A DNA stretch of 64,000 nt from the NCBI GenBank assembly GCA_028695025.1, contig JAQVJV010000002.1:18998-82997 (forward strand), read 5' to 3'. The position numbers were made by a program, and so were the translations under genes. This DNA is from Candidatus Moraniibacteriota bacterium (GTDB lineage Bacteria; Patescibacteriota; Minisyncoccia; Moranbacterales; UBA11712). Below are positions 328 to 63,784 of the stretch, in pieces. The notes beneath the pieces were generated by a model. It did no database searches, was not told the DNA's origin, and saw only the letters and a list, made by a program, of their open reading frames with translations. Positions within the stretch are counted from its first letter, which is position 1. Every line of letters starts with the position of its first letter.

Positions 328-361
328 CCTCACCCCAACCCTCTCCTTATAAAGGAGAGGG
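328..361. repeat. Palindromic repeat element copy (CTCACCCCAACCCTCTCCTT-ATA-AAGGAGAGGG)
   Basis: 10-bp stem CCCTCTCCTT/AAGGAGAGGG with a short loop, lying in the 5' leader of the gene at 427. Same family as 2108, 26787, 38089, 63505. Confidence 0.8.
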
Positions 362-398
362 AGCCCAGCAAGAACATACTAATTGCTAAAAACTGATC

Positions 399-426
399 GC
401 CTTCTCCTTGGTAAGGAGAAGGAGGG
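399..426. repeat. Variant palindromic repeat (CCTTCTCCTT-GGTA-AAGGAGAAGGAGGG) immediately 5' of ATG 427
   Basis: Hairpin CTTCTCCTT/AAGGAGAAG with loop GGTA. Its 3' arm is the Shine-Dalgarno for the ATG at 427. Confidence 0.75.
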
Positions 427-1167
427 ATGAGGTTAAAATATATGCAAACAGAAGACCTAAAAAACGCTGGTTTAAGCCAAAATGAGGCAAAAGTGTACCT
501 CGCCGCTTTGGAATTGGGCGAAACAAGCATATACAGGCTTGCCAAGAAATCAGGCGTGAAAAGAACGACGACCTATTTGGCCGTCGAAACCCTCAAGGAA
601 AAAGGGCTTATTTCAAGCTATGAACGTGACAATACCTTAGTTGTTTATGCGGAAAATCCCAAAAAACTCACAGATCAGCTGGAAGAACGGAAAAGAGCCC
701 TTGAAAAAATCATGCCAGAGCTTCTCGCTTTCACGAACCTCATCGACAAAAAACCGAAAATTCGCTATTTCGAAGGGAAAGAGGCGTACAAAGAAGTATT
801 TGGCGATGTTTTGAATTATCCTGACAGTGAAACCCTGGTTACCTTCAATGAAAAATTCTGGGACTGGGATGGTTATTTTAAGACCTATTTCATGCCCAAA
901 CGAAAGGAGAAGAAGATTTGGGCTCGAATTCTTTTTCGTGACACGCCGGAATTGAGAGCTGTCGGAGCGCAAGCGGAAGAATATCTCTCACGCGCCAAGT
1001 TTGTTCCGTCTGAAAATTTCAAAATCGGGATTGAAATGGTTCTCTATGGGCGCGACAAGGTTGGGATGGTTTCTTATGAAGAAGAAATTGCCATCATCAT
1101 CGAAAGCAAGATGATATACGACACGCAAAAAAGTTTTTTTGAAGTGATTTGGGAGGGGGCGAAATAA
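427..1167 (+). CDS. TrmB-family transcriptional regulator (paralog 1)
   Basis: N-terminal wHTH LSQNEAKVYLAALELGETSIYRLAKKSGVKRTTTYLAVETLKEKGLIS plus a TrmB-type C-terminal domain. About 45% identical to the ORF at 14174-14926. Confidence 0.7.
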   Translation: MRLKYMQTEDLKNAGLSQNEAKVYLAALELGETSIYRLAKKSGVKRTTTYLAVETLKEKGLISSYERDNTLVVYAENPKKLTDQLEERKRALEKIMPELLAFTNLIDKKPKIRYFEGKEAYKEVFGDVLNYPDSETLVTFNEKFWDWDGYFKTYFMPKRKEKKIWARILFRDTPELRAVGAQAEEYLSRAKFVPSENFKIGIEMVLYGRDKVGMVSYEEEIAIIIESKMIYDTQKSFFEVIWEGAK

Positions 1168-1254
1168 AAAATCCGAAAGGTCATCCATGCTTGGCAAAAT
1201 AGTGATATGGTGATATAATTTCAGCAAAGGATAATCTTTCAAAAATTCACCAAC

Positions 1255-2091
1255 ATGAAAAAAGAAAAACATTTGGCCATATTTGACGGCAAAAAAATTA
1301 GAAGAGATTGGAATGAAAAAGAAGAGAGGTGGTATTTTTCAGTAGTGGATATTGTCGAAGTTCTCACGGATAGCGTCAACCCGCGAGATTATTGGTTCAA
1401 GATGAAAAAGCGGGTAAAAAGCGAAGATGGAGTTGAGTTGTCGACAATTTGCCGACAACTGAAAATGCGCTCCACGGATGGTAAATATTATTTGACGGAT
1501 GCAGCTGACACTGAAGCTATATTTCGCATTATCCAGTCGGTTCCGTCGCCAAAGGCTGAACCGTTCAAAAGATGGCTGGCCAGAGTCGGTTATGAGCGAA
1601 TCGAAGAAATCAATGATCCGGAACGGGCGCTAAACCGCAGCCGGGAATATTGGCGGCGGATGGGCAGGAGCGAAAAGTGGATCCAACAGAGAATGATGGG
1701 CCAGGAAGTGCGAAACAAGCTCACCGATTACTGGCGCGATCACGAGGTGACGGAGCAAGAAGAATACGCGATTCTCACCAATATCATCCACGAAGAATGG
1801 TCGGATTTCACCGTAAAAGAACACAAAAAGCTCAAGAAACTGAAAACGGAAAATCTGCGCGACCATATGTCGGACGCGGAATTGATCTTCACGGCGCTTG
1901 CGGAACTTTCCACCCGCCAAATTGCCGAAGTGGAGCAATCCCGCGGCTTTCAGGAGAACAAAATTCCGGCCAAACGCGGCGGCCGGATCGCCAAACGTGC
2001 CCGGATTGATCTGGAAAATAAAACAGGGAGAAAGGTTGTGACGGGGGAGAATTTCAAACTGCCTTCATCGCAGAAAAAACTGATAAAATAA
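1255..2091 (+). CDS. Bro-N / DinD-like (DNA-damage-inducible protein D family) protein
   Basis: N-terminus FDGKKIRRDWNEKEERWYFSVVDIVEVLTDSVNPRDYWFKMKKR fits the Bro-N pattern. The C-terminal region resembles the E. coli DinD C-domain. Pattern-level recognition only. Confidence 0.45.
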   Translation: MKKEKHLAIFDGKKIRRDWNEKEERWYFSVVDIVEVLTDSVNPRDYWFKMKKRVKSEDGVELSTICRQLKMRSTDGKYYLTDAADTEAIFRIIQSVPSPKAEPFKRWLARVGYERIEEINDPERALNRSREYWRRMGRSEKWIQQRMMGQEVRNKLTDYWRDHEVTEQEEYAILTNIIHEEWSDFTVKEHKKLKKLKTENLRDHMSDAELIFTALAELSTRQIAEVEQSRGFQENKIPAKRGGRIAKRARIDLENKTGRKVVTGENFKLPSSQKKLIK

Positions 2092-2107
2092 ATCCACTCC
2101 TCGTACA

Positions 2108-2143
2108 ACCTCACCCTGACCCTCTCCTTGGTAAGGAGAGGGA
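2108..2143. repeat. Palindromic repeat element copy (ACCTCACCCTGACCCTCTCCTT-GGTA-AAGGAGAGGG)
   Basis: Perfect 10-bp stem. The 3' arm AAGGAGAGGG sits 7 nt upstream of ATG 2151 and so acts as its RBS. Confidence 0.8.
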
Positions 2144-2150
2144 TTTGCGG

Positions 2151-2627
2151 ATGTTGCAGAAATACTATAATCTTCAATTTATGCAGCTGAAACTCTATAT
2201 CGAAGAGAACAATTTCATAAAACTCGCGCTTTTTGAGGGAAAAAAGGTGCTTGATAGCCTAGAATGGCAGGATGAGAACGATTTATCTCACAAACTTTTG
2301 GCGAATTTGGATAAAATTTTGAGGAAAAATAAGTTAGGACTTGACCCCGCCCCAATTTTGCGGGAAATAAATTTATCTTCAAAAGATGCAAAGAATAAAA
2401 AGCGAATACAGCTCGACGCTGGTCAAAAAGGCCGGGCTATTCGCCCGACGCGCCGAGCAGGTTTTCAGGGGCAAAATTGGAGCGGGGTTGACAAACTTGA
2501 TAAGTACAATATAATAAGTCAAGTGCCGCGGAAATGGACGACGTACCGGATCGCGGAAATTGCTTTTGAAACGCTAAAAATCGGAGAAAATTCAAGTCCT
2601 ATTGCCAAGAATAAGCAAGCATGTTAG
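2151..2627 (+). CDS. Hypothetical protein (weak TsaB/YeaZ-like N-terminal pattern)
   Basis: ORF track 2145..2627 with a TTG start; the ATG at 2151 is preferred. The N-terminus LKLYIEENNFIKLALFEGKKVLDSLEWQ...LDKIL loosely resembles TsaB. Not reliable. Confidence 0.3.
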   Translation: MLQKYYNLQFMQLKLYIEENNFIKLALFEGKKVLDSLEWQDENDLSHKLLANLDKILRKNKLGLDPAPILREINLSSKDAKNKKRIQLDAGQKGRAIRPTRRAGFQGQNWSGVDKLDKYNIISQVPRKWTTYRIAEIAFETLKIGENSSPIAKNKQAC

Positions 2628-2767
2628 AATCGAATCAAGATACAAATCTTTTCGGGTGAACCAATCAAACCAAGCATAACTAAATATTCTTAACTAAACC
2701 ACTTAGCCAAAACCAACCGCTTCCCAGAATTTGCCGAAGCGGAAATTTGGAGAGTGGCGTGTCTTTT

Positions 2768-5700
2768 ATGTCTCAAGAGGCCAAAACCCTCGGGGTGAAA
2801 GAGTCTTTCAGCCCGCAATCCTCTCTCCATAAGAGGAAATTTTTCAACCGGCGCGCAATGGTGTCCCTTCCGAACTTGATCGAAACGCAAACCATGTCAT
2901 ATGACTGGTTTCTCGCGGAAGGTATGCGTGAACTCCTCGATGAGGTTAACCCAATTGAGGATTTCACCGGAAAAGATTTGGAACTTTCTTTTGGAAAATA
3001 TTATCTTGACGAGCCGAAATACGACGAGAAAACGTCGAAAGAAAAAAATATCTCTTTTGAGGCGCCGCTCCGGTGCGCGGTGAGCCTTCTCAACAAACAG
3101 ACCGGGGAGGTGAAAGAACAGGAAGTTTATCTTGGAGACTTGCCGATCATGACCGACCGGGGAACTTTCATCATCAACGGCGTGGAAAGAGTGGTGGTGA
3201 GCCAGCTTATCCGAAGCCCGGGAGTCTTTTTCACGATGGAATATCAGAAGGGAAAGAAACTTTTCGGGGCGAAAATCATTCCGAACCGCGGAGCTTGGCT
3301 CGAAATGGAAACGGATCTTGACGGAGCCATTTGGGTGAAAATCGACCGCAAGCGAAAAGTGGCGATCACTTCTCTTTTGCGGGCTTTTGGCATTTCCACG
3401 GACGAGCTTTTGGCCAAAACTTTCGCCGATGTGAACAAAGGCGAGACGAATTATCTTGAAGCGACGATTGGGCGCGACGCGGCGAAGACCCAGGGAGATG
3501 GATTCAAGGAGGTTTACAAAAGAATTCGTCCGGGGGATCTCGCCTCCGTTGAAAACGCGCGGCAGATGATCGAATCGATGTTTTTCAATTTTGAGAGATA
3601 CGATTTCGGAAAAGTGGGGCGATACCGCTTGAACCAGCGTTTGGATGTGGATGAGCCGAATGACGAAGCGCATCGAATTTTGCGTCCGGAAGATTTGGTG
3701 CTGATCATCAAGGAAATTATCAATCTTAATAATAATCCGATGGCGGAGCCGGATGATATCGACCACCTTGGAAACCGGCGGGTGCGTTGTGTTGGGGAGC
3801 TTGTGCAAAACAAATTTCGGGCGGGACTTGCGCGCATGGTGCGAAATATCAAAGACCGGATGAGTACTTGCGATCTTGCCATAGTTGTTCCAGGTCAACT
3901 CGTAAACTCGCGTCCGGTGGCGGCGGCAGTCAAGGAATTTTTTGCTTCTTCCCAGCTTTCGCAATTCATGGATCAGGTGAATCCGCTGGCGGAACTTGAA
4001 CACAAGCGGCGGCTTTCCGCGATGGGGCCGGGCGGTCTCACCCGCGAACGGGCAAGCTTTGAAGTGCGCGATGTCCACCATTCCCACTACGGTCGGATTT
4101 GTCCGGTGCAGACGCCGGAAGGCCCGAACATCGGATTGGTGAATCATTTGTCTTGCTACGCGCGCATCAACGAGTTCGGTTTTCTCGAGACTCCGTATCG
4201 AAAAGTTGAGTTGAAGGACGGCAAGCCGTTTGTCACCAAAGATATTGAATATTTGAACGCGACCGTGGAAGATCGGAAAGTTATTGCTCACGCGGATATC
4301 CTGATTGACGACGATGGATATATCCAGGAAGAAAAAATTGAAGCGCGGGTGAAAGGGAAGCCGTCGGTGATTGAAGCGACGAAGGTTGACTATGTCGATG
4401 TTTCGCCGAAACAGTGTATTTCAATTGCCACTTCGCTCATTCCGTTCCTTGAGCACGACGATGCTCACCGGGCTCTCATGGGTTCAAACATGCAGCGCCA
4501 GGCAGTATCTTGCATTCTGCCGGATTCGCCGCTGGTGGGAACGGGGCTTGAAGACAAAGCGGCGGCTGATTCGGGACAGGTGATCCTTGCGCGCGAAGAC
4601 GGGGAAGTGGCGGAAGTGGATGCGGCACATATCACCCTCAAGACGGAAAAAGACGGAAAATCAACGAAGAAAATTTATTGGCTCCAGAATTTCGAACGCT
4701 CGAACGCTTTCACTTGTATGAATCAGATTCCGCGGGTTTCCCGGGGACAAAAAGTGGCGAAAGGCCAGCTTCTCGCGGACGGAGCTTCGACGGACAATGG
4801 GGAATTGGCGCTCGGCCAGAATGTTTTGGTGGCGCTCATGCCTTGGGAGGGGAACAACTTTGAAGACGCTATCATCATTTCTGAACGGTTGCTTCAGGCG
4901 GATCGCTATACTTCCATTCATATTGAAGATTTTTCAGTGGATATCCGTGATACGAAGCTTGGCCCGGAAGTGGTGACGCGAGATATTCCGAATATCGGTG
5001 AAGAGCGGCTCAAAAATCTTGACGATACGGGGATCATCCATATTGGAGCGGAGGTTTCTTCGGGAGATATTCTTGTCGGGAAAATTTCACCGAAAGGGGA
5101 AGGCGATCTCACCCCGGAAGAAAGATTGCTTCGCGCCATCTTCGGAGAAAAATCAAAGGACGTGAAAGATACTTCGCTTTATCTTCCGCACGGGGAACAT
5201 GGAAAAGTGGTGGATATCAAAATCTTTTCGCGCGAGCAGGGCGACAAGCTTCCGGCAGGAGTGATCCAGCAGATTCAGGTGAGTGTGGCGCAGCTTCGCA
5301 AAATTTCAGTGGGCGACAAGCTTGCCGGACGACACGGAAACAAGGGAGTGATTTCGAAAATTGCGGCGGTCGAAGATATGCCTTGCCTTCCGGATGGCCG
5401 ACCGGTGGATATCATACTCAATCCGCTTGGAGTGGCTTCGCGTATGAACATCGGCCAGATTCTTGAGGCGCATCTCGGTTGGGCGGCTTCCGAACTCGGA
5501 TACAAAATCGCAAGTCCCGCCCTTGACGGAGTGAGCGAACAGAACATAAAAGAGGAACTTAAGAAAGCGGGCCTTCCTGAAGACGGAAAGATGCGGCTTA
5601 TGAACGGAAAGACAGGAGAGTACTTCGACGAAAAAACCATGGTGGGATATATGTATATCATGAAGCTCAACCACTTAGTGGAAGACAAAATTCACATGCG

Positions 5701-6052
5701 TTCTATCGGACCGTACTCGCTCATCACCCAGCAGCCTCTCGGCGGAAAAGCCCAATTCGGAGGCCAGCGCTTCGGGGAAATGGAAGTGTGGGCGCTCGAA
5801 GGATACGGCAGTGCGCATACGCTTCAGGAAATGATGACAATCAAATCGGACGACCAGCTCGGCCGCTCGAAAGCCTATGAATCGATCATCAAGGGCGAAC
5901 GGATCAAGAGTCCGAACATCCCGGCTTCTTTCAACGTGTTAGTAAACGAACTCAAGGGGCTTTGCCTCAATATCGAATCGGTCGGCGAGAAAACGGAAGT
6001 TGACGAGGAAGAGAAAACCGGATCGGAGAGAAAGGATGACGGAGAGGAATAA
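2768..6052 (+). CDS. rpoB: DNA-directed RNA polymerase subunit beta
   Basis: Motifs [69 protein letters not shown]. The ORF track starts at TTG 2747. ATG 2768 with GGAGAG 13 nt upstream is preferred. Confidence 0.97.
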
Positions 6053-6084
6053 ATTTTTTAAACTTATTGGAAACTTAAAATTTA

Positions 6085-6140
6085 TTGATCCTTGATCCCC
6101 GCCTGCAGCGCTATGCGCAGCATTGCGGGCAGGTTTGATC
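6085..6140 (+). promoter_or_regulatory. GC-rich structured element in the rpoB-rpoC intergenic region
   Basis: CCCGCCTGCAGCGCTATGCGCAGCATTGCGGGCAGG carries interleaved complementary arms (CCCGC/GCGGG, CCTGC/GCAGG) and internal palindromes AGCGCT and TGCGCA. Confidence 0.3.
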
Positions 6141-6156
6141 ACTGATCGCTGAAAAT

Positions 6157-12782: not shown

Positions 12783-13163
12783 CTATTTTTTCTGCCAACC
12801 TTCCGAAGGCGACCACTGCCAGCCGCCCTCAAAAGACTTGTTTTTCAGGAAAGGAACGTGATCCTCTATCTCGCTCCTTCCCTCCCAGACAAAGTCGGAA
12901 AGTTTGAGCTTTCCGGCTTTGTCTGAGTATTGATAAACTGTCGGGCGACGGTGGTCGCCCGGGGCACAATAGACGACGACTTCTATGTCGCCATCTATTG
13001 CCTCGAACTCGACCATGTCGAATGGCCGAGTTGACCCCTTTGTGGGGGTCGGGTTGGAACCGTCGGCACGGTATTCGTGCCGCCATACCCAATTCTTTAT
13101 TTCCGTAATCATTTTCCCTCCGCCCGCCGTCCGTGGCAGGCAACTTTTTTGAATTCTTTTCAA
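12783..13163 (-). CDS. Hypothetical protein
   Basis: 126-aa ORF in a locally GC-rich stretch. No recognisable motifs. Alternative start near 13112. Confidence 0.35.
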   Translation of the reverse strand: MKRIQKSCLPRTAGGGKMITEIKNWVWRHEYRADGSNPTPTKGSTRPFDMVEFEAIDGDIEVVVYCAPGDHRRPTVYQYSDKAGKLKLSDFVWEGRSEIEDHVPFLKNKSFEGGWQWSPSEGWQKK

Positions 13164-13291
13164 TTCCGCGCCAGTGTAAGTTTTCCTTTGCGCGGGATTG
13201 TTTCTTTCGGCGAATCGCCGCAGGAATTGTGAAAATGTTTTCGCAGCTCTTGCAGCGATTCACCCTTATTCAATTTTCAAAGATCTTTTCC

Positions 13292-14173: not shown

Positions 14174-14926
14174 ATGCTATCTAACGATCTCGAAAAACTG
14201 GGCTTGAGCGACAAGGAAGCCAAAGTATATTTGGCGGTTTTGGAGTTGGGGGAGGGAAATATCGCCCAAATTGCCAAAAAATCGGGCGTGAAGCGGACGA
14301 CAGTCTATGATATCGCGCTCTCGCTAAAAAGTAAGAATTTATTGCTGGAAACCATGAAAGGCAAAAAAAATATCTATTCCGCCGAAGATCCCCGGAAATT
14401 GGACGATGTCTATGACGAGCGAAAGGCGACGCTCAAAAAGATTTTGCCGGAACTGCTTTCAGTCATGAACGCGATTGAGAAAAAGCCGCGCATCCGATAT
14501 TTTGAGGGCGCGGAAGGAATCAAGGAAGTTTATAAAGACACGCTCAAATATCCCGACCAGGAAATCCAGGCTTGGGTGACGAGTGAAGCGATGACCAAAT
14601 TCGACGTTGAATGGCTCGAAAAATATTATGTGCCCAAGCGCCTTGAGAAAAAAATCTGGGCGCGGGTGATTGCGCCAAAAACAGAGGAGGTTGTCGATTA
14701 TCAAGAACGCGATGAAAAGTCTTTGCGGCAAACACGATTGGTCGACCCGAAAGAATTTCCCATGGAAGTGGAGATCAATCTCTATGGCGGGCGGAACATC
14801 GGGGTCATGGCTTTTGGCGAGCAGATGGGCCTTGTCATTGAGAGCCGGAAGATATACAAAACGCTTAAGAGCATATTTGAGCTTGGCTGGAAATCTCTCG
14901 AAAAATATGCTAAGATGAATCAGTAA
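14174..14926 (+). CDS. TrmB-family transcriptional regulator (paralog 2)
   Basis: LSDKEAKVYLAVLELGEGNIAQIAKKSGVKRTTVYDIALSLKSKNLL wHTH. The C-terminus aligns with paralog 1 (KKIWARV..., ...VIESRKIYKTLKSIFE). Confidence 0.7.
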   Translation: MLSNDLEKLGLSDKEAKVYLAVLELGEGNIAQIAKKSGVKRTTVYDIALSLKSKNLLLETMKGKKNIYSAEDPRKLDDVYDERKATLKKILPELLSVMNAIEKKPRIRYFEGAEGIKEVYKDTLKYPDQEIQAWVTSEAMTKFDVEWLEKYYVPKRLEKKIWARVIAPKTEEVVDYQERDEKSLRQTRLVDPKEFPMEVEINLYGGRNIGVMAFGEQMGLVIESRKIYKTLKSIFELGWKSLEKYAKMNQ

Positions 14927-14970
14927 ATAATATCTTTAAATTACTCTTATTCCTCCAATATTCCTCCAAA

Positions 14971-15006
14971 CCCCCTCTCTAGTCTCCCCCTTGGCAGGGG
15001 GAGAGG
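14971..15006. repeat. Palindromic repeat variant (CCCCCTCTCTAGTCTCCCCCTTGGCAGGGGGAGAGG)
   Basis: CTCCCCC/GGGGGAG stem with loop TTGGCA. Sits between trmB2 and ftsK. Related to the CCCCCTTT...AAAGGGGG subfamily. Confidence 0.6.
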
Positions 15007-26750: not shown

Positions 26751-26786
26751 AAGGCGGATACAAAATGTGTCCGCCTTGATTTTTTA
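26751..26786 (+). terminator. Rho-independent terminator
   Basis: AAGGCGGATACAAAATGTGTCCGCCTT followed by GATTTTTT. Confidence 0.6.
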
Positions 26787-26825
26787 ACCTCACCCCGTCC
26801 CTCTCCTTATCAAGGGAGAGGGAGT
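26787..26825. repeat. Palindromic repeat element copy (ACCTCACCCCGTCCCTCTCCTT-ATC-AAGGGAGAGGGAG)
   Basis: Same family. Lies immediately 3' of manC on the minus strand. Confidence 0.8.
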
Positions 26826-29370: not shown

Positions 29371-29460
29371 GCCCCTCTCCTTTTCCTAAAGGGAGAGTTG
29401 GAGAGGGTTTATTTATAACAAAAATCCCCCTTTAATCCCCCTTTATTAAAGGGGGAAAAT
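29371..29460. repeat. Two adjacent palindromic repeat copies (CCCCTCTCC...GGAGAGGG and CCCCCTTTATTAAAGGGGG)
   Basis: Both subfamilies of the hairpin repeat lie directly after the pmm stop. Confidence 0.7.
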
Positions 29461-29474
29461 CTCGAATTTTTAAA

Positions 29475-29514
29475 AGCCCCGTCGCTGTTTTCCAGCCGGG
29501 GCTTTTGTTTTTTT
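29475..29514. terminator. Rho-independent terminator (bidirectional candidate)
   Basis: AGCCCCG-TCGCTGTTTTCCAGC-CGGGGCT followed by TTTGTTTTTTT. Confidence 0.65.
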
Positions 29515-38088: not shown

Positions 38089-38133
38089 AACCTCACCCCG
38101 ACCCTCTCCTTATATAAGGCGAAGGAGACGAGG
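38089..38133. repeat. Palindromic repeat element copy, degenerate 3' arm, directly 5' of the uvrA ATG
   Basis: AACCTCACCCCGACCCTCTCCTTATATAAGGCGAAGGAGACGAGG. AAGGAG at 38120-38125 serves as the uvrA RBS. Confidence 0.7.
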
Positions 38134-55815: not shown

Positions 55816-55887
55816 TCTCCTCGGCAGGAATCGAACCTGCATAACCAGCTTAGAAGGCTAGTGTTCTATCCGTTGAACTACGAGGAG
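55816..55887 (-). tRNA. tRNA-Arg (anticodon TCT), flanked by the 13-bp inverted repeat CCCCGCACCATTT/AAATGGTGCGGGG
   Basis: CTCCTCG acceptor. CTAGC-CTTCTAA-GCTGG anticodon arm. GCAGG-TTCGATT-CCTGC T arm. Leader and trailer are complementary. Confidence 0.85.
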
Positions 55888-55909
55888 GATAAATGGTGCG
55901 GGGGGCGGG

Positions 55910-55961
55910 CCTGCATAACCAGCTTAGAAGGCTAGTGTTCTATCCGTTGAACTACGAGGAC
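55910..55961 (-). pseudogene. 52-nt duplicate of the 5' part of tRNA-Arg(TCT), truncated after the 5' T-stem
   Basis: Identical to 55836-55887 except the first nucleotide. Followed by CCCGCCCCCC instead of the T-loop. Confidence 0.6.
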
Positions 55962-55997
55962 ATCACTTGAAGATTATAATGGATTCGGCGGAAAAAG

Positions 55998-57305: not shown

Positions 57306-57349
57306 TGACTTAAGAATAACCCAAAAGGCGGTGTTTTACAAGGTTATAA

Positions 57350-57376
57350 AAACGAGCCGTACGGCCCGTTTAAAAT
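57350..57376 (-). terminator. Rho-independent terminator after the hsp20 gene
   Basis: AAACGAGCCGTACGGCCCGTTT palindrome, with a T-run on the minus strand. Confidence 0.55.
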
Positions 57377-57397
57377 TGCTTTTTTGGATTGATCAGC

Positions 57398-57961: not shown

Positions 57962-58037
57962 GGTTTTTGCGAAATACGAATTAAGCGAAAATACGAAAAG
58001 TTATTTTGCTTTTTTTAGTATATAACTAGTTATGCGG

Positions 58038-58643
58038 TTAGGCAAGTTTGCGAAAATTGAACGCCAGAATAGCAATGCCTATAAAGTAAAAAACAGAAAG
58101 TGAAATAACAACAAGATAGTTTGTGAAATTGCCCTTTTGGATGACGAGAAAATTATAAAGCAGGTGGTTGAGAACAGGGAAGAAGAGAATTTTGACCGGT
58201 TTTAAAGGGGTAGAAAAAGTGTTTGAGGAAATAAAAACGCCCATCAAAAAAGCGGTGAGGGTGTGAAGGGCAAGGATTGATCCCAGGGAAAATAATATCT
58301 GCGGCTCATGGATCCGGAAGGCTTGGAAAACTTCCGGATTGGCATAAAATATCAAGCCGATTTCGGAAAGCCCCCAAAATGCGCCGAGGAAAAAAGAAGC
58401 AATGGCAAGCTTCACCCCGGAAAGTTCGATTTTTTTCCGGATAACAAAAAATATTGCCCAAAATTTGGACAGTTCTTCAATGATCACGGAAACAGCCAGA
58501 AAACAGGTGAGGTTTTGATAAAAATTGGAAACTATTTCCCGTTGCCAAAAAACGTCGGCGGCCACGGCAATAATCTGCTCCAAAAATACGGCTATGGCGG
58601 CAGAAACAACGGCGAGAATGATGATTTTTATTGCGGTTTTCAT
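58038..58643 (-). CDS. Polytopic membrane protein, possible PrsW/CPBP-type intramembrane protease
   Basis: IIEELSKFW (EExxK-like) in TM1; about 6 TM helices. The ORF track extends to 58697, overlapping tsaD. Confidence 0.35.
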   Translation of the reverse strand: MKTAIKIIILAVVSAAIAVFLEQIIAVAADVFWQREIVSNFYQNLTCFLAVSVIIEELSKFWAIFFVIRKKIELSGVKLAIASFFLGAFWGLSEIGLIFYANPEVFQAFRIHEPQILFSLGSILALHTLTAFLMGVFISSNTFSTPLKPVKILFFPVLNHLLYNFLVIQKGNFTNYLVVISLSVFYFIGIAILAFNFRKLA

Positions 58644-58647
58644 TTTT

Positions 58648-59760
58648 TTATAGGGCCAATCCTGCGTCGGCCTCCAGATTTTTCCAGTTGGTTTCAAATT
58701 TCTTTTTGTTTTTGGCGAGAGTGTATTGGAAGTATCCGGCGACGGCGATCATGGCGGCGTTATCGAGCGAGTATTGAGTATCGGGCATGAAGTATAGAGT
58801 ATTTTTCAGATTATTTTTGATGGCTTCTCCGAGCTGTTTTCGCAGTTCTTCATTCGCGGAGACTCCGCCGCCAAGCAAAATCGTTTTCGGCTTGTATTTT
58901 TTTGCCGCTTTCAAAGTTTTTGCCACTAAAACGTCAATGACGGCTTGCTGAAATTCGGCACAAAGCGCGGTGGTCATTTTTTTGTCTTTCAATATCACCG
59001 GATTTTTTTTCACAGCATAAAGAGCGGCGGTCTTGAGGCCGGAAAAAGAAAAATTGAGATTATTCGAATTAAGCATCGGCCGGGGGAGCCGAAGGCTCAA
59101 CCTTCGGCGGTCCGAAGGTTGAGCCTTCGGATTTGCGGATTTTTGCGCGGTCAAAATTTTTTCAGCTTCAGCCGCAACTATCGGTCCGCCGGGATAACCA
59201 AGATTCAAAATTTTCGCCACTTTATCAAAAGCCTCGCCAGCCGCATCATCCAGGGTTTCTCCGATAATCCGAAAGTCCATGTGTTTCTTCATGAGTATGA
59301 GCTGTGTATGCCCGCCGGAGACAATTAAGGCTAAAACCGGAAATTTGATAGATTTGGAATTTGGAATTTGGTTATTGGAATTTTCGCGAACAAAGTTCGC
59401 GTATATGTGTCCCGCAATATGATGCGCTCCGACAAGCGGTACGCGCCAGGCGTAGGCGAGAGCCTTCGCCGAATTGGTGCCGATGAGAAGCGCCGGGATG
59501 AGCCCCGGACCCTGGGTGACGGTGATGATATCAATGTCTTTCGGCGCAAGTTTGTTTTCCCGGATGGTTTTTTTCAGAAGAAGCGGCAGGTTTTTAAGAT
59601 GCTCCCGGGCGGCAAGATTGGGGACAACTCCGCCGAAAGGAGCGTGGATTTTCACTTGCGATGACACTAGGTCGGAAAGCACCTGAAAGCGGCCTTTTTC
59701 GGCTTTCACGAGAGCGACGGCGGTTTCATCGCAGGAAGTTTCAATGGCGAGGATATTCAT
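58648..59760 (-). CDS. tsaD: tRNA N6-adenosine threonylcarbamoyltransferase TsaD, with a 14-aa palindrome-encoded insertion
   Basis: MNILAIETSCDETAVAL. AHHIAGH metal site. GGGVSAN. Insert ...KAQPSDRRRLSLRL... encoded by the 59089-59130 palindrome. Confidence 0.9.
   Translation of the reverse strand: MNILAIETSCDETAVALVKAEKGRFQVLSDLVSSQVKIHAPFGGVVPNLAAREHLKNLPLLLKKTIRENKLAPKDIDIITVTQGPGLIPALLIGTNSAKALAYAWRVPLVGAHHIAGHIYANFVRENSNNQIPNSKSIKFPVLALIVSGGHTQLILMKKHMDFRIIGETLDDAAGEAFDKVAKILNLGYPGGPIVAAEAEKILTAQKSANPKAQPSDRRRLSLRLPRPMLNSNNLNFSFSGLKTAALYAVKKNPVILKDKKMTTALCAEFQQAVIDVLVAKTLKAAKKYKPKTILLGGGVSANEELRKQLGEAIKNNLKNTLYFMPDTQYSLDNAAMIAVAGYFQYTLAKNKKKFETNWKNLEADAGLAL
59089..59130. repeat. GC-rich 19+4+19 nt palindrome CCGAAGGCTCAACCTTCGG-CGGT-CCGAAGGTTGAGCCTTCGG inside tsaD
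   Basis: Each 19-mer is itself a 7-bp-stem hairpin, and the two are exact reverse complements. In-frame, 42 nt. Confidence 0.9.
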
Positions 59761-59846
59761 GAGATAAGTATAGAGTATTTAGTATAATGTATAAAGTTTT
59801 TCTTCTGCCAACCAAAAACCGCCCAAGAGAGGGAGGTTTTTTAAAT

Positions 59847-59921
59847 TGGTAGCCCCAAGGGGAGTCGAACCCCTCTTTTCAGGATGAAAACCTAATGTCC
59901 TAACCGATAGACGATGGGGCC
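59847..59921 (-). tRNA. tRNA-Glu (anticodon TTC), CCA encoded
   Basis: GGCCCCA acceptor (G1-U72 wobble). TTAGG-TTTTCAT-CCTGA anticodon arm. AGGGG-TTCGACT-CCCCT T arm. ACCA 3' end. Confidence 0.85.
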
Positions 59922-60040
59922 GCTTGATGCGGCGATACGCTGGATATCATAGCAAAAATGGGTGAATTCGTCAAGAATTGCGGATCCAGGCAAATTCCGG
60001 ATGCTTTGAAAAATCCAGCCGATTTGATATAATCGGCTAT

Positions 60041-60385
60041 ATGAAAAAGGTTGAGAAAAATATCTCTTTAGGCGAGCTTCGGCAGATGGCTGAAAATATG
60101 TTTGGCAACCTGGTGAAAGCGGTGGTTGATGTCGAAAAAGGAACCATGGCGGTTGACGCGGAACTCCATGCCGATGAGGAAGCTTTTCTTTTGGAAAAAG
60201 GTTCACAACAAAAAAATCTTTGGGGAATCAATCTTTATCCGGAATTTTTCGGCCAAGATGATTTTGTGGAATTCGATTCGATGGTCAATCTGCGCCCTTC
60301 GCAGGAAAATCGCAGCCGGGGAGTGGAAAATCCGGAAATTCGAAAAAAAATCCGGGAAATAATCGCTAATTTAGTCACGAAATGA
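60041..60385 (+). CDS. Hypothetical protein
   Basis: MKKVEKNISLGELRQMAENMFGN... The ORF track starts at 59978. No motif recognised. Confidence 0.4.
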   Translation: MKKVEKNISLGELRQMAENMFGNLVKAVVDVEKGTMAVDAELHADEEAFLLEKGSQQKNLWGINLYPEFFGQDDFVEFDSMVNLRPSQENRSRGVENPEIRKKIREIIANLVTK

Positions 60386-60714
60386 AGCCCCAGCATCAAC
60401 AATTGGCGGATGGAAAATGGGAGAGTATGGACTTTTTTCAGCAAATGGCCAATGTCGGCAGTGAAGTGGAGCGGGCGATCAGATGGAACGAAAAGAAAAA
60501 CGCGGCTTATGGCCGGATGGCCTTTGAAAGGTCTCTTGAGCTTCTGGATTTCACGATTGCGGACAGAAAAAACAGGAAGAGGCTGAAAGAACTCTTGAGA
60601 TTGAGAGAATTTTTGGCCGATTATTTCTTTTTCGGGAATATTTATCGGTCAACAAAAAAAAGCTGGCAGAACTATTTTTTCAGTTTCAATTATGCCGCCA
60701 GGCTCGGACGCTGA
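60382..60714 (+). CDS. Hypothetical protein
   Basis: 110 aa. ATGA start/stop overlap with the upstream ORF. Confidence 0.4.
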   Translation: MKPQHQQLADGKWESMDFFQQMANVGSEVERAIRWNEKKNAAYGRMAFERSLELLDFTIADRKNRKRLKELLRLREFLADYFFFGNIYRSTKKSWQNYFFSFNYAARLGR

Positions 60715-60737
60715 AACGTGAAATCATGCTCCGCTTG

Positions 60738-60766
60738 ACAAGATATTGCAAAAAGTCCAATATTTT
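60738..60766 (+). promoter_or_regulatory. Putative sigma70 promoter for hup (TTGCAA, 17 bp, TATAAT)
   Basis: TTGCAA at 60738-60743 and TATAAT at 60761-60766. Confidence 0.5.
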
Positions 60767-60816
60767 GCTATAATTCAAGAAGTTAAGCTCGAAATTAACA
60801 TTAACCGCAAAATTCC

Positions 60817-61089
60817 ATGAAGAAAAAAGAACTCGTGGAGGCAATCGTCAAGAAGACGGAGCTTGCCAAAAAAGACGTCGTTCTCGTCCTTGAGACGATG
60901 GCGGAAGTGGTGAAAAGCCATGTCGCCAAAGAAGCCGTCGAGATTCCGGGGCTTGTGAAAGTCGAGAAAAAGCATCGGGCCGCCCGCATGGGCCGCAACC
61001 CGATGACCGGTGAATCGATCCAGATTCCGGCCAAGTCCGTCCTGAAAGCCCGCGTGCTGAAGAAGCTCAAAGACGCGGTGATGAAATAA
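60817..61089 (+). CDS. hup: DNA-binding protein HU
   Basis: MKKKELVEAIVKKTELAKKDVVLVLETMAEVV...RMGRNPMTGESIQIPAKSVLKARVLKKLKDAV. Confidence 0.9.
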   Translation: MKKKELVEAIVKKTELAKKDVVLVLETMAEVVKSHVAKEAVEIPGLVKVEKKHRAARMGRNPMTGESIQIPAKSVLKARVLKKLKDAVMK

Positions 61090-61228
61090 GACGAACCATA
61101 TCTTTCAAAAAATTCCTCCATAGCGGGGGATTTTTTGATTTTTGGGTCGGATATGATACGATTAGCTTGCCATGGAAAGAAAAAAAATCGCAAAACCCCG
61201 AAATATCTTTTTTAAAGAGAAGAATGAT

Positions 61229-61928
61229 ATGGGCATATTGCTTCTTCACGGCTGGACGGCGCCGGCCGATGTTTTTTTGCCCATGGCGGAATATTTCAAT
61301 TCGCTTGGCTTCACCGGTCTCCGCGCCGTTTCTGCGGGGCCATGGGACGGTGCCTGAAGATCTCGAGGGGGTGGTTTGGCGGGATTGGCTGGAGGACGTG
61401 CAGGAAGCGTTCCGTGACTTAAAAAAAGAATCTTCAAAAATTTTTATTGCAGGTTCATCAATGGGCGGGGATCTTGCCATGCTTCTTTCCGAAGAAAAGG
61501 ATGTTTCCGGGGTTATTTCTCTTGGAACTCCCATTGAATTTCATTTTCAGTTTTTGGCGGAATCTGCACTTCGAATCCTTGGCGCTTTTAAAACTTATCG
61601 CCGGAAATATTATCCTCCCTGGGTGTCGAAAGACGCGATTGATCCTCGACTGTATCCGTATTATCCGATTGCGAGTGCGCAGGAGGTAGTGAAGCTAGCA
61701 AAATACACAGGGGAATGTTTACTCTGGGTCACAAAGCCAATTTTGATAGCTCAATCTACAAGCGACCACCTTGTCTCCAAAAAATCTCCGCAAATAATTT
61801 TTGACCGAAGCAGTTCCTCTCAAAAGGAAATATATTGGGTTGAAAACGGGCACCATGTTTTTGTGGAAAAAGAGGAAATATGGAAGAAGATTGAAGATTT
61901 TATAAAATTAGCGAGTCAAGACAATTAG
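61229..61928 (+). pseudogene. Alpha/beta-hydrolase (esterase/lipase, GSSMGG nucleophile elbow) with a +1 frameshift near 61314-61318
   Basis: N-terminus MGILLLHGWTAPADVF...NSLGFTG is in the frame of ORF 61172-61357. The rest, ...SAPFLRGHGTVPEDL...FIAGSSMGGDLAM..., is in the frame of ORF 61167-61928. Deleting one G in ACCGGTC restores a single ORF. Confidence 0.6.
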
Positions 61929-62031
61929 TTTCGGCTATATTTCAACTTTATTTCTATTGCATTTCAGAAATACGGAAGAAATAAACCCGCCTTACTTGCG
62001 AAATAAGTTGAGATTTAGGAATATATTTTCA

Positions 62032-63186
62032 ATGAAAATTGCAATCTTCACCAACAACTATCTTCCCAATCCTTTCGGCGTTTCCGGTTCAATTGAAAGT
62101 TTCCGGAAAGTTTTTGAAAAAAAAGGCCACACAGCCTATATTTTCGCGCCGTATTGGAAAGGTTATACCGACTCAAATCCGAATGTTTTCCGCTATCCGG
62201 CTTTGAAATTTTCCTCGAAAGGAATCAAGTATCCTTTGCCACTGCCATATTCGAAAAAAATGAATGGGATTATCAAAAAGATGGAATTTGACATCATCCA
62301 TGCCCAGCATCCGAATCTTCTGGGGGCGGCAGGGGCGCATTGGGCAAAAAAGAAAAATGTCCCGCTTGTTTTCACCTGGCACACCCTCTATGACCAATAT
62401 GCTCACTTTGTCCCGCTTGTTCCGCGTAAGATGGCGGCCGCTTGGGCAATTGGAAACGCACGAAAATATGCCAATCGAGCCGATCAAGTAATTGTTCCAA
62501 CGCCTTCGGTCGGCGAAATCATCAAAAATTGGGGCGTGACGAACGAAAATATCGAAGCAGTTCCGACCGGAGTGGAAGAAGATCAATTCTCAAATCTGGA
62601 TAAGGAAATTATCCGTGAAAAATATGGCATAAAAAAAGATGAAATACTACTTTTTGTGATGACGCGCCTCACAGAGGAGAAAAATGTTTTGTTTTTGTTT
62701 GACGCGGCGGTCGGAATTCTGGAAAAAAATCCGAAAACGAAATTCATGATCTGCGGGGACGGGGGGTTGAAGAAGGAGATAGCGAAAAAAATTGACGGGC
62801 TGGGGCTTCGTGAGCGGATCATTTTAGCGGGGATAGTCTCGAGCGATGAGAAAAAAAATTATTATGCCGCGGGAGATATTTTTGTTTATGCCTCGAAATC
62901 GGAAACGCAGGGGATGATTCTTACGGAAGCGATGTATTCCGGACTGCCGATTGTTGCGGTGCGGACAACGGGCGTAAAAGACGTTGTCGAAGACGGACGG
63001 ACGGGGTTTTTGACGGAGGAAGATCGGGAAGAATTTTCCGAAGCGGCGCAAAAATTGATCGATGACGCGGAGTTACGCCGGAATTTTGGCGAAGAGGCGG
63101 CGCGAACGGCGCGGGAAAAATATACGGCGACGGTTTGCGGGGAAAGGATGCTGGGGGTATATGAGAGAGTGATAAATAAAAAATAA
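62032..63186 (+). CDS. Glycosyltransferase family 4 (GT-B, group 1)
   Basis: MKIAIFTNNYLPNPFGVSGSIESF. C-terminal EX7E-like region ...FVYASKSETQGMILTEAMYSGLPIVA. The ORF track starts at 61957. Confidence 0.75.
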   Translation: MKIAIFTNNYLPNPFGVSGSIESFRKVFEKKGHTAYIFAPYWKGYTDSNPNVFRYPALKFSSKGIKYPLPLPYSKKMNGIIKKMEFDIIHAQHPNLLGAAGAHWAKKKNVPLVFTWHTLYDQYAHFVPLVPRKMAAAWAIGNARKYANRADQVIVPTPSVGEIIKNWGVTNENIEAVPTGVEEDQFSNLDKEIIREKYGIKKDEILLFVMTRLTEEKNVLFLFDAAVGILEKNPKTKFMICGDGGLKKEIAKKIDGLGLRERIILAGIVSSDEKKNYYAAGDIFVYASKSETQGMILTEAMYSGLPIVAVRTTGVKDVVEDGRTGFLTEEDREEFSEAAQKLIDDAELRRNFGEEAARTAREKYTATVCGERMLGVYERVINKK

Positions 63187-63187
63187 T

Positions 63188-63784
63188 TTGAAAATATTAA
63201 GCCGCCGATTCTATTCTCAAAACACAATCAAGATTGCCCAAGAACTTCTGGGTTGTTTTCTTGTCCGGGAATATCGCGGAAAAATTATGAAAGTGATAAT
63301 CACGGAAACAGAAGCCTATATTGGGGAAAATGATTTGGCGTGTCATGCGTCGCGCGGTCGGACGCCGCGGACGGAAGTGATGTATGGCGTGCCGGGGCAT
63401 GCCTATGTATATATGATCTATGGGATGTATCATTGCCTGAATGTTGTGACGGAAGAAAAAGATTTTCCCGCGGCGGTTTTGATCCGGGGCGGGATAAATC
63501 CCTCTCCAGCTCTCCCTTTAGCAAAGGGAGAGAGTCCGGGTTTCCCCCTTTGGCAAAGGGGGACTAAGGGGGATTTAAACGGTCCCGGAAAACTCTGCCG
63601 GTTTTTGAAAATTGACCGAAAACTTAATACATGGGATCTCACAAAAAGCGAGAAATTGTGGATTGAGGAACGAGATTCGAAAATAAAATTGCCGAAAGTG
63701 ATAAAGTCTCGGCGTATTGGCATCGATTATGCGAAACATTGTAAAGAATATTTATGGAGATATTCCCTGTCATCCCGCACTTGA
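63188..63784 (+). CDS. mpg: DNA-3-methyladenine glycosylase (Mpg/AAG family) carrying an in-frame palindromic-repeat insertion
   Basis: ETEAYIGENDLACHASRGRTPRTEVMYGVPGHAYVYMIYGMYHCLNVV...AVLIRGG[INPSPALPLAKGESPGFPLWQRGTKGDL]NGPGKL...RIGIDYA. The bracketed segment is encoded by two hairpin repeats. Confidence 0.8.
   Translation: MKILSRRFYSQNTIKIAQELLGCFLVREYRGKIMKVIITETEAYIGENDLACHASRGRTPRTEVMYGVPGHAYVYMIYGMYHCLNVVTEEKDFPAAVLIRGGINPSPALPLAKGESPGFPLWQRGTKGDLNGPGKLCRFLKIDRKLNTWDLTKSEKLWIEERDSKIKLPKVIKSRRIGIDYAKHCKEYLWRYSLSSRT
63505..63575. repeat. Two palindromic hairpin repeats inside mpg (CTCTCCCTTT-AGCA-AAGGGAGAG and CCCCCTTTG-G-CAAAGGGGG)
   Basis: Same repeat family as the intergenic copies. 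Located in a surface-loop position of Mpg. Reading frame preserved. Confidence 0.85.

Follow-up and report, generated by a model that had tools for sequence, protein, structure and literature searches.

Palindromic hairpins whose 3' arm resembles a Shine-Dalgarno (SD) sequence recur along a 64,000-nt stretch of DNA from a member of the CPR/Patescibacteria (the window, by which we mean that whole stretch). They raise the question of whether such repeats control translation, are mobile miniature palindromes, or are both. A sequence-only reading had listed eight loci, and all eight hold the sequences it described, with ATG codons at 427, 2151 and 38139; the observation itself is confirmed, and the interpretation placed on it is partly supported.

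Ten three-block elements are dispersed through the window

That the repeats form a true family was borne out by a three-block finder, which returned nine elements in the window against a mean of 0.48 and a maximum of 3 in 100 dinucleotide shuffles. A decayed copy upstream of uvrA is the tenth. The window thus holds ten short elements where about 0.5 would be expected by chance, a density of about one copy per 6 kb:

327..361, - strand: left member of an inverted pair that lies in the putative 5' leader of a TrmB-like gene; read on the + strand, third block ACCTCACCC at 327-335, pyrimidine block (Y) CCCTCTCCTT at 339-348, ATA, and purine block (R) AAGGAGAGGG at 352-361; 10-bp hairpin plus nine perfect triplets; RNA -17.1 kcal/mol (z = -4.7)
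398..436, + strand: right half of that pair, in opposite orientation, in the TrmB-like leader; Y CCTTCTCCTT at 400-409, loop GGT, R AAGGAGAAGG at 413-422, third block GGGATGAGGTT at 424-434 (reading AACCTCATCCC on the - strand); RNA hairpin -15.3 kcal/mol
2107..2142, - strand: canonical copy between a Bro-N-domain gene (end 2091) and a 160-aa ORF (ATG 2151); blocks AACCTCACCC / CCCTCTCCTT / AAGGAGAGGG; ten perfect triplets; RNA -18.5 kcal/mol
14969..15004, - strand: copy of another sequence subfamily, between a second TrmB-like gene and ftsK (ATG 15030); blocks AACCCCCTCT / TCTCCCCCT / AGGGGGAGA; RNA -17.7 kcal/mol
26786..26823, - strand: canonical copy between convergent genes, 1 nt away from the - strand mannose-1-phosphate guanylyltransferase stop codon and directly after an intrinsic-terminator-like hairpin (26751-26777) and T run; RNA -19.2 kcal/mol
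29375..29410, + strand: left half of an inverted pair, directly after the phosphomannomutase stop codon; blocks CTCTCCTTTT / AAAGGGAGAG / GAGAGGGTTT; RNA -21 kcal/mol
29423..29456, - strand: right half of that pair, of the TCCCCCTTT / AAAGGGGGA / AGGGGGATT subfamily; RNA -17.6 kcal/mol (z = -3.8); a terminator-like hairpin and T run come next, at about 29466-29510
38089..38125, - strand: decayed canonical copy upstream of uvrA; blocks AACCTCACCCC / CCCTCTCCTT / AAGGCGAAGG; two stem mismatches
63497..63532, - strand: copy in frame in a 3-methyladenine DNA glycosylase (MPG) gene; blocks CCCTCTCC / CTCTCCCTTT / AAAGGGAGAG
63543..63575, + strand: copy in frame in MPG; blocks TCCCCCTTT / AAAGGGGGA / AGGGGGATT

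The expectation of stable hairpins holds for nine elements, which fold as RNA at -13.8 to -21 kcal/mol, and fails for the uvrA copy, which folds no more stably than its shuffles (-10.4 kcal/mol, z = -1.1). The exact pattern CCCTCTCCTT-N2-8-AAGGAGAGGG occurs twice in the window and never in 100 shuffles. If up to one mismatch is allowed, CCCTCTCCTT is found 15 times (vs a mean of 4.6) and CCTCACCCCNNCCCTCTCC four times, the latter always on the + strand. All nine pyrimidine-loop-purine hairpins of the window possess the third block; purine-loop-pyrimidine hairpins, the opposite type, are at chance level (one in the window vs 1.1 in shuffles). The canonical copies that stand singly, four in number, all point the same way relative to + strand genes, and the two copies in the TrmB-like leader, once thought to be in tandem, form an inverted pair with third blocks upstream at 327-335 and downstream at 424-434.

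A third block mirrors the stem

The purine-rich strand of each element has the order Y-loop-R-loop-R', as in CCCTCTCCTT / AAGGAGAGGG / GGGTGAGGTT. The conserved 5' extension (A)ACCTCACCCC, formerly taken for an extension of the arm, is the complement of R'; judged by its sequence it is no flank but a third block mirroring the stem, the mirror repeat of the BoxC/PIT/triplex motif. Because a Y-loop-R palindrome is the same on both strands, having the pyrimidine arm first is not a strand bias. Nor does SD/anti-SD mimicry define the family, since the subfamilies with AAAGGGGGA, AAAGGGAGAG and AAGGGGGAGA keep the three-block geometry and not the SD sequence.

Triplex pairing rules hold for the third block. 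Covariation was counted over copies that include related ones, so that the counts are not independent events: a C-G pair at the ninth stem position is faced by G in the third block in 97 of 97 copies, whereas a T-A pair there is faced by T in 139 of 147 and by A in 6 of 147, never by G. For the tenth position, C goes with C in 35 of 37 copies, compared with 6 of 19 where the stem departs from the Y/R pattern. In metagenomes, 134 of 141 exact matches to the hairpin have a third block that mirrors the stem, and the three blocks are altered in concert in orthologous MPG inserts. Structure alone is insufficient to explain the near-identity of the core across phyla.

Proximity to start codons is probably not a property of the family

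If the pyrimidine arm masked the SD-like ribosome binding site of the following gene, and melting by temperature, a helicase or another factor freed it, the elements would be a translational control device. The hairpins are stable as RNA, and ATG 427/442, 2151 and 38139 each have a purine arm a short way upstream. The TrmB-like pair lies downstream of a promoter-like TTGCAA-17-TATAAT at 274-302 and so is probably in a leader. SD-like motifs occur at 8 of 63 window genes, and the elements supply three of the eight. Three of the eight intergenic copies abut putative start codons, vs 8.6% for random placement (P ~0.025-0.03, a post hoc value based on uncertain start calls), which keeps local co-option possible.

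Other evidence speaks against such a device, which we regard as unlikely. Known RNA thermometers have weak, mismatched stems in gene-specific leaders. The elements resemble the SD-sequestering thermometers ROSE and fourU in that, at three places, an SD-like run would be paired just upstream of a start. Unlike thermometers, they have perfect, GC-rich 10-bp stems (-15 to -19 kcal/mol) and occur in every kind of context; SD masking has no use for their third block, nor does SD occlusion account for its conservation. The sole copy at a well-supported start is that of uvrA (ATG 38139, backed by an NCBIfam full-length match from UvrA residue 2), where the SD-like AAGGAG at 38121-38126 straddles the arm end and the hairpin has decayed. 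At the TrmB-like gene, ATG 427 falls inside the third block and the alignment with the paralogue starts at Met6, which is ATG 442, suggesting that translation probably begins there. With the elements removed, an SD-like motif is found at 5 of 60 window genes vs 6.9%, about background, and the segment is essentially SD-less. Elsewhere in the window, copies follow stop codons at gene 3' ends, separate convergent genes or fall within an ORF.

The metagenomic copies of the identical hairpin point the same way: 11 of 141 lie at most 12 nt from an ORF start (ten at GTG/TTG and one at ATG; the third block itself contains GTG), and the distribution of distances to ORF starts has no peak. This largely refutes the anticipated enrichment at start codons. 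Orientation relative to flanking ORFs is unbiased (18 vs 13), and for the family as a whole the SD reading is weak.

Two copies lie in frame in a glycosylase gene

Two copies in an ORF, at 63497-63575, lie beyond the loci first listed. They form an inverted pair in the MPG gene, encoding the peptide NPSPALPLAKGESPGFPLWQRGTKGD. The corresponding loop has no insert in 48 of 116 homologues, and at least three different TM-type (triplex motif) inserts occupy it among the others, one of them a canonical CCCCCTCTCCTT-AAT-AAGGAGAGGG-TT-GGGGTGAGGTT unit. Orthologues thus provide filled and empty alleles, with the inserted peptide retained through later divergence. To judge from these alignments, the loop is a repeated target of palindromic insertions. 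The alleles fit the suggestion of a mobile miniature palindrome. It is the filled and empty sites that suggest mobility; neither an enzyme that would move the unit, nor a target-site duplication, nor a transposition mechanism has been described for it.

The repeats probably belong to the BoxC/PIT/triplex motif family

We are fairly confident that the window repeats belong to the BoxC / PIT (potential intrastrand triplex) / TM family, a previously described repeat that is still unexplained. Earlier papers on BoxC and PIT are said to be those of Bergler in 1992, Bachellier in the 1990s, and Hoyne and Maher in 2000. The architecture is that of the E. coli BoxC/PIT/TMECO element (Holder, 2015; PMC4666352), with the consensus 5'-CCCTCNCCC N3-6 GGGNGAGGG N3 GGGNGAGGG (PMC4666352). 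The window element, reverse-complemented, corresponds to this consensus and to the E. coli copies. Three window copies are 2-3 substitutions from the consensus (26786..26823 is two away) and the uvrA copy is four away; the strict consensus occurs in none of the window copies because their terminal triplets are T-A.T, not C-G.G, giving AAGGAG. The E. coli hrpB-mrcB spacer has the same inverted pair. Scanning with CCTCACCCCNNCCCTCTCC returned at least 120 loci; among the matches listed, 80 records span many phyla and the R arm is present in 120 of 132 complete copies. The core is also found in IMG/VR contigs, and copy number differs strongly among related genomes, as in Enterobacter strains with more than 300 or fewer than 30 copies.

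The E. coli motif forms a triplex in vitro by CD and NMR and blocks polymerase in vitro, has neither promoter or terminator activity nor a preferred distance to ORFs, and is tied to local instability; DMS footprinting in vivo in E. coli did not detect the triplex (PMC4666352).

A proposed DNA-level unit with an SD-like by-product

On its purine-rich strand, the unit consists of a Y block, a short loop, the purine complement R, a loop of 2-4 nt, and R' mirroring R. When single-stranded, Y and R would form a hairpin and R' could fold back into its major groove through G.G-C, A.A-T and T.A-T triplets, for which the in vitro evidence concerns the E. coli version. We propose that the unit acts on DNA as a short dispersed repeat that is prone to insertion and is probably selfish or driven by structure; most insertions would fall in intergenic spacers, with an occasional in-frame one tolerated in a protein loop. 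Since the R block is GA-rich, an SD-like 3' arm is an automatic by-product, and since the hairpin is a Y-loop-R palindrome, AAGGAGAGGG is offered to a downstream gene on either strand. Copies abutting starts would place a stable hairpin and an SD-like run in the initiation region; in a compact, largely SD-less CPR genome they are incidental or, at most, locally co-opted.

Comparison with known systems

The sole Rfam similarity is to Whalefall-1 (RF01762), on the - strand at 2107-2144. Whalefall-1 is a proposed non-coding RNA known only from a whale-fall metagenome and graded as a likely RNA by Weinberg et al. (2010; PMC2864571). A structured non-coding RNA of this type, transcribed from the purine-rich strand, would share with the elements a CUCUCC-loop-GGAGAG hairpin and then AGGGUGAGG on the same strand, and some Moranbacteria copies carry one more small hairpin, within loop 2, as the Whalefall-1 model does. 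We nevertheless consider this very improbable. The window copies do not have that second hairpin, the score of 17.6 bits is far under the gathering score of 37, and six other loci gave no match. Moreover, the purine strand is antisense to flanking genes in most window copies, orientation relative to genes is unbiased, some copies are inside ORFs, and RNA reportedly does not form triplexes of the purine-motif kind (PMC4666352). The evidence points to a DNA-level repeat.

A REP/RAYT- or MITE-type element, in which a transposase recognizes the hairpin and its conserved flank and the triplex-like symmetry is incidental, is quite unlikely. As with REP/BIME sequences, the palindromes are short, GC-rich and extragenic, and each has an asymmetric flank that is conserved; many are arranged as inverted pairs recalling REP doublets, and they sit in short intergenic spacers. 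Filled and empty sites exist, and copy number varies among relatives (also PMC4666352). Yet no GTAG/CGTC tag is seen in the sequence beside the palindrome, and REP families co-evolve with RAYT and are species-specific, whereas the TM core is near-identical across phyla. The flank follows mirror rules across subfamilies, which a protein-recognition flank need not do, and no transposase or RAYT was found in searches covering 20 of ~63 ORFs (10 proteins against NCBIfam, 14 queries against Pfam). Rickettsia palindromic elements (RPE) were reportedly described by Ogata et al. in 2000 as selfish palindromic DNA lying in frame in protein genes. The MPG copies resemble them: palindromic units have entered a variable loop of a conserved enzyme without breaking the frame, filled and empty orthologous alleles exist, and the peptide has been kept through divergence. 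Unlike RPE (~100-150 bp), TM units are ~33-36 bp, have three triplex-type blocks and occur in a different host phylum.

The closest likeness is to BoxC/PIT/TMECO. Shared features are the Y-loop-R-loop-R' order and its core CCCTCTCC / GGAGAGGG / GGGTGAGG, loop lengths of 3-4 and 2-3 nt, a 'mismatch' variant (GGCGAGGG), inverted pairs as a frequent arrangement, marked over-representation, copy number that differs among relatives, and no fixed relation to genes. The window copies differ from those of E. coli in having T-A.T and not C-G.G terminal triplets, in the several sequence subfamilies co-resident in one window, and in their density in a CPR host. The genomes reported in the published TMECO survey are proteobacterial only (PMC4666352), whereas the core is found here in many phyla and in IMG/VR. 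All E. coli copies are intergenic. New here are a CPR (Moranbacteria-like) host with a high density of the element and two copies in frame inside an MPG glycosylase gene.

The window repeats have a three-block architecture

A sequence-only reading had described palindromic hairpins at eight loci of the window, and the sequences at all eight are as it described them. That they form a repeat family beyond chance was borne out by a three-block finder and by dinucleotide shuffles. The hairpin CCCTCTCCTT-N2-8-AAGGAGAGGG occurs twice in the window and in none of 100 dinucleotide shuffles, the 10-mer with up to one mismatch occurs 15 times against a shuffled mean of 4.6, and CCTCACCCCNNCCCTCTCC with up to one mismatch occurs four times (at 328, 2109, 26788 and 38091). 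Among the 35 hairpins in the window with stems of at least 9 bp, the left arm is 85-100% pyrimidine in ten, and in eight of those it is pyrimidine throughout. RNA folding gave free energies of -13.8 to -21 kcal/mol, and the predicted stability held for every element except the decayed copy ahead of uvrA, which has two stem mismatches and folds at -10.4 kcal/mol (z = -1.1).

The informative feature of these repeats is a third block (R') that adjoins the hairpin and mirrors its stem. A hairpin composed of a pyrimidine arm (Y), a loop and a purine arm (R) is identical on both strands; the observation that the pyrimidine arm always comes first on the + strand is therefore no strand asymmetry, and orientation can be read from the third block only. 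The three-block finder required at least seven triplets with at most one mismatch and allowed the triplets G.G-C, A.A-T and T.A-T. It returned nine elements of 8-11 triplets, with no more than one mismatch per interaction and loops of 2-4 and 1-4 nt; five of the nine have 9-10 perfect triplets. Shuffled sequences gave a mean of 0.48 and a maximum of 3 such elements (100 dinucleotide shuffles). A third block is present in 9/9 Y-loop-R hairpins, and R-loop-Y hairpins occur at chance (1 versus 1.1). The decayed copy upstream of uvrA is the tenth element. What the earlier reading took for a conserved 5' extension, (A)ACCTCACCCC, turned out to be the complement of R', and its leading AA faces AA/TT pairs that lengthen the stem in this lineage. 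By sequence, the window elements fall into four subfamilies.

Sequence subfamilies in the window (blocks Y / R / R')
Subfamily 1: CCCTCTCCTT / AAGGAGAGGG / GGGTGAGGTT
Subfamily 2: TCCCCCTTT / AAAGGGGGA / AGGGGGATT
Subfamily 3: CTCTCCCTTT / AAAGGGAGAG / GAGAGGGATT
Subfamily 4: TCTCCCCCT(G) / AAGGGGGAGA / AGAGGGGGTT

Judged by its MPG homologues, the window belongs to Candidatus Moranbacteria (Parcubacteria, CPR). On a rough gene map the window is about 88% coding, with 46% GC and a median spacer of about 100 nt. Six of the elements form closely spaced inverted pairs (327-361/398-436, 29375-29410/29423-29456 and 63497-63532/63543-63575).

Positions of the elements in the window
327-436, inverted pair, between an upstream promoter-like site (274-302) and a TrmB-family regulator gene downstream
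2107-2142, single element, between a Bro-N gene and a 160-aa ORF
14969-15004, single element, between a second TrmB-like gene and ftsK
26786-26823, single element, flanked by convergent genes, with a stop codon 1 nt away
29375-29410 and 29423-29456, pair, after the phosphomannomutase stop codon
38089-38125, decayed element, ahead of uvrA
63497-63532 and 63543-63575, pair, in frame within the 3-methyladenine DNA glycosylase (MPG) gene

Ten elements in 64 kb amount to about one per 6 kb, compared with about one per 200 kb in E. coli. Seven syntenic loci of other Moranbacteria, some 107 kb in total, hold 0-2 elements each.

The TrmB-like gene (427/442-1167) and the Bro-N-domain gene (1255-2091) are flanked by the pair at 327-436 and the single element at 2107-2142, and a second TrmB-like paralogue (14174-14926, 45% identical) is followed by the element at 14969-15004; the bracketed TrmB-like/Bro-N arrangement could be a cassette or a coincidence. 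At two gene ends, intrinsic-terminator-like hairpins with T runs (26751-26785 and ~29466-29510) directly adjoin elements; the elements thus cluster alongside terminators in these short spacers and do not stand in for them. A further hairpin with a 17-bp stem (CAGACAAAGTCGGAAAG tttgag CTTTCCGGCTTTGTCTG, 12886-12925), in or beside small unannotated - strand ORFs (12829-13263), is not a triplex motif.

The repeats are a variant of the BoxC/PIT/TMECO family

Literature searches with the strings CCTCACCCC and GGGGTGAGG returned only unrelated eukaryotic papers, and the route to the family was the literature on E. coli repeat names. The motif was named BoxC and later PIT (potential intrastrand triplex) elements and TMECO, with the TMECO consensus 5'-CCCTCNCCC N3-6 GGGNGAGGG N3 GGGNGAGGG (Holder et al., 2015; PMC4666352). 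E. coli K-12 carries 23 copies, all intergenic; five inverted pairs occur, a 'mismatch' type is common, and no link of the motif to phages or plasmids was reported (PMC4666352). An isolated strand of the E. coli version folds in vitro into an intrastrand triplex that is stable, as seen by CD and NMR, and DNA polymerase is blocked in vitro; DMS footprinting did not detect the triplex in vivo in E. coli, where local variability among strains is raised at the motif (PMC4666352).

The window elements share with BoxC, PIT and triplex motifs the three consecutive blocks (Y, a complementary R and a mirror R', with short loops), and they correspond to the TMECO consensus in reverse complement. The strict consensus has no exact match in the window; the copies at 26787, 327 and 2108 lie 2-3 substitutions away, and the uvrA copy lies four away. 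In the three-substitution copies (327 and 2108) the outermost triplet differs in each of the three blocks (C to T, G to A and G to T), and they are therefore a sequence variant and not the E. coli consensus. The window repeats are a known, still enigmatic family, present as a sequence variant in a new host lineage. To our knowledge, BoxC/PIT/triplex motifs, known since the 1990s, have no established function or mechanism of spread.

A genome-collection scan with CCTCACCCCNNCCCTCTCC found at least 120 loci. The matches listed (80 records) include Proteobacteria, Verrucomicrobia, Planctomycetes, Acidobacteria, Bacteroidetes, Cyanobacteria, Chloroflexi and others, along with MAGs labelled Actinobacteria. 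Of the 132 complete copies among the matches listed, 120 have the purine arm after CCTCACCCCNNCCCTCTCC, as GGAGAGGG in 88, as the recurrent variant GGCGAGGG in 19 and with another single mismatch in 13. E. coli genomes have a median of six places each, 47 of 26,285 places are on plasmids, and the hrpB-mrcB spacer holds an inverted pair arranged as in the window. The same CCTCACCCCNNCCCTCTCC core is frequent in predicted viral contigs of IMG/VR, with at least 120 loci and the purine arm in 131 of 142 copies among the matches listed. In isolate phage genomes, BLAST of the window variant gave no match and the pan-bacterial consensus as query gave only 7 records; because the motif is rare there, the IMG/VR matches may represent prophages or flanking host DNA, and spread by way of viruses is no more than conceivable.

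In some contigs from metagenomes and from Pseudomonas (loci L164, L124, L008 and L032), the hairpin or motif is repeated in tandem at regular intervals, of about 175 nt in L164 (2242, 2417, 2592, 2743) and about 111-152 nt in Pseudomonas, inside longer repeat units. Copies of the L164/L137/L161 type are without the third block and have an ACGT-extended stem.

The third block covaries with the stem

Two independent sets of copies were compared for geometry. In the metagenomic set, chosen by the hairpin alone (CCCTCTCCTT-N3-4-AAGGAGAGGG, n = 141), a mirror block lies within 26 nt on one or both sides of 134 hairpins. Counting copies, which are related and not independent events, the third-block base is G in 97/97 where the ninth stem pair is C-G (R = G); where that pair is T-A (R = A), it is T in 139, A in 6 and G in none of 147. 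The third block also tracks the stem at the tenth position, in 35 of 37 copies that keep the pyrimidine/purine pattern, and it is random (6/19) where the stem departs from that pattern (Fisher p ~1e-6). These are the pairing rules of the purine-motif triplex. Orthologous MPG inserts likewise differ by one change common to all three blocks (CCCTCTCC/CTCTCCCTTT/AAAGGGAGAG versus CCCCCTCC/CTCCCCCTTT/AAAGGGGGAG). The covariation supports selection on, or generation through, the three-block geometry.

Elements are inserted in frame at a hot spot in MPG

The MPG gene occupies 63188-63784 of the window. Its insert at 63497-63575, an inverted pair of two elements at the DNA level, encodes 25 residues (NPSPALPLAKGESPGFPLWQRGTKGD) between the conserved AAVLIRG and NGPGKLC. 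Among 116 close homologues, this loop has 13 residues in 48 and 15-47 residues in 68. The inserts in those 68 are of at least 10 unrelated types, which include at least three kinds of triplex-motif insert; several MPG inserts are non-triplex palindromes, for example RRPTS..TSDV and VRPHSS..RSDL..GRTASRH. Filled alleles were read from DNA in the window and at MPG loci L243 and L246-L248, and an empty one at L244.

Alleles at the MPG site in related loci
L244, empty allele at the DNA level, ...ATTGATCACAAAAAAACAAACGG
L243, one canonical unit in frame, CCCCCTCTCCTT-AAT-AAGGAGAGGG-TT-GGGGTGAGGTT, encoding PPLLNKERVGVR
L247, 'mismatch' variant, its loop 2 containing a hairpin
L246, two units, both from other subfamilies
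L245 and L249, non-triplex palindromes

The element has thus reached the MPG site several times, with the inserts then drifting under protein constraint.

The tsaD gene (58648-59760, - strand) contains a perfect 46-nt palindrome in frame at 59087-59132, with a 21-bp stem (AGCCGAAGGCTCAACCTTCGG cggt CCGAAGGTTGAGCCTTCGG). The TsaD Pfam match takes up 314 residues over 263 profile positions, and the TsaD proteins of relatives are 363-402 aa long. Palindromes inserted in frame may be frequent in these genomes.

Shine-Dalgarno mimicry and other readings of the repeats

The sequence-only reading saw a strong Shine-Dalgarno (SD) sequence in the 3' arm and proposed a translational control device, a mobile miniature palindrome or both; the SD interpretation is mostly not supported by our comparisons. 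Whichever strand a downstream gene lies on, any Y-loop-R palindrome with a GA-rich R offers it an SD-like 3' arm, and other subfamilies keep the geometry without an SD sequence. SD-like GGAG or GAGG lies at -18 to -4 in 8 of 63 rough gene calls in the window, three of the eight being element-derived; with elements excluded, 5 of 60 genes have such a motif against a background of 6.9%, and this genome segment is therefore essentially SD-less. Leaders in the window are AT-rich, and the Moranbacteria-like genome appears to start translation largely without SD. The proposal that the hairpin arm serves at starts does fit three of the ten window copies, and three of the eight intergenic copies lie directly beside putative starts, where random placement in spacers would give 8.6%, a nominal and post hoc difference (P ~0.025) that depends on uncertain start calls. 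The enrichment near start codons that this proposal predicts is absent among the 141 identical metagenomic hairpins, where ORF starts near the arm form no peak; an ORF start lies no more than 12 nt away in 11, and its codon is GTG or TTG in ten (GTG occurs in the third block itself) and ATG in one. Orientation relative to flanking ORFs is unbiased (18 versus 13). ATG 442, the point at which the paralogue begins, is the probable start of the TrmB-like gene, which leaves ATG 427 within the third block, and the best-supported start, that of uvrA, is the one whose element has lost the hairpin. Perfect stems fold at -15 to -19 kcal/mol at 37 C, which would argue against melting, and the stem of the uvrA copy is weak (-10.4 kcal/mol). 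In E. coli the motif showed neither promoter nor terminator activity and lay at no favored distance from ORFs (PMC4666352). A translational role, as local co-option or as local inhibition by a stable hairpin in the initiation region, is a minor possibility that we consider very unlikely.

At gathering thresholds, Rfam identified only tRNAs in the window. Permissive settings gave Whalefall-1 (RF01762) as the sole similarity, on the - strand at 2107-2144, with 17.6 bits against a gathering score of 37, and six related loci had no Whalefall-1 match at E up to 1; we do not assign the elements to that family. Whalefall-1 and the window element have CUCUCC..GGAGAG..AGGGUGAGG in common, but Whalefall-1 has a second hairpin between its blocks, a feature that some Moranbacteria copies do show in loop 2. 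Intrinsic terminators were rejected: neither strand has a T run after the hairpin, and a terminator scan of interval 1-2700 listed none of the elements. We also rejected REP/RAYT elements, as the core is conserved across phyla and neither a GTAG nor a CGTC tetranucleotide tag lies beside any window copy. There was no transposase among the 20 of ~63 window ORFs scanned.

Discussion

The repeats of the window combine a three-block architecture, over-representation and triplex-rule covariation with a pan-bacterial distribution and with filled and empty alleles, and they show no preference for start codons or orientation. We infer that the window variants would fold into a triplex like the E. coli version, that the elements would act at the DNA level, and that they would spread; clean filled and empty alleles at one site are material for working out the insertion mechanism. 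It is conceivable, if on balance unlikely, that the three-block unit spreads horizontally as a minimal mobile DNA element of ~33-36 bp, inserted or copied by its triplex and hairpin geometry and not by an element-encoded transposase, and that some copies in SD-poor compact genomes were co-opted as hairpin-masked ribosome-binding sites. Geometry-driven mobility of this kind, if true, would explain both the near-identical core across phyla and in viral contigs and the repeated independent arrival at one homopurine-rich MPG site in CPR bacteria.

Three findings are new here: triplex motifs reach a very high density in a reduced CPR genome, their third blocks covary cleanly by triplex rules over hundreds of copies, and MPG has a hot spot for in-frame insertion. 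The elements are also an annotation hazard, since the SD-like motifs and hairpins derived from them can mislead the prediction of start codons and ribosome-binding sites and they can leave odd peptides in predicted proteins, such as PLLNKERVGV and PLAKGE.

Rickettsia palindromic elements are palindromic repeats inserted in frame in genes. The MPG inserts resemble them in behavior, as in-frame palindromic units within a conserved protein for which both filled and empty orthologous alleles exist. Whereas the copies of E. coli K-12 are always intergenic, two window copies lie in frame inside MPG. The uneven copy number among Moranbacteria loci, in turn, echoes the strain-to-strain variation described in Enterobacter (PMC4666352).
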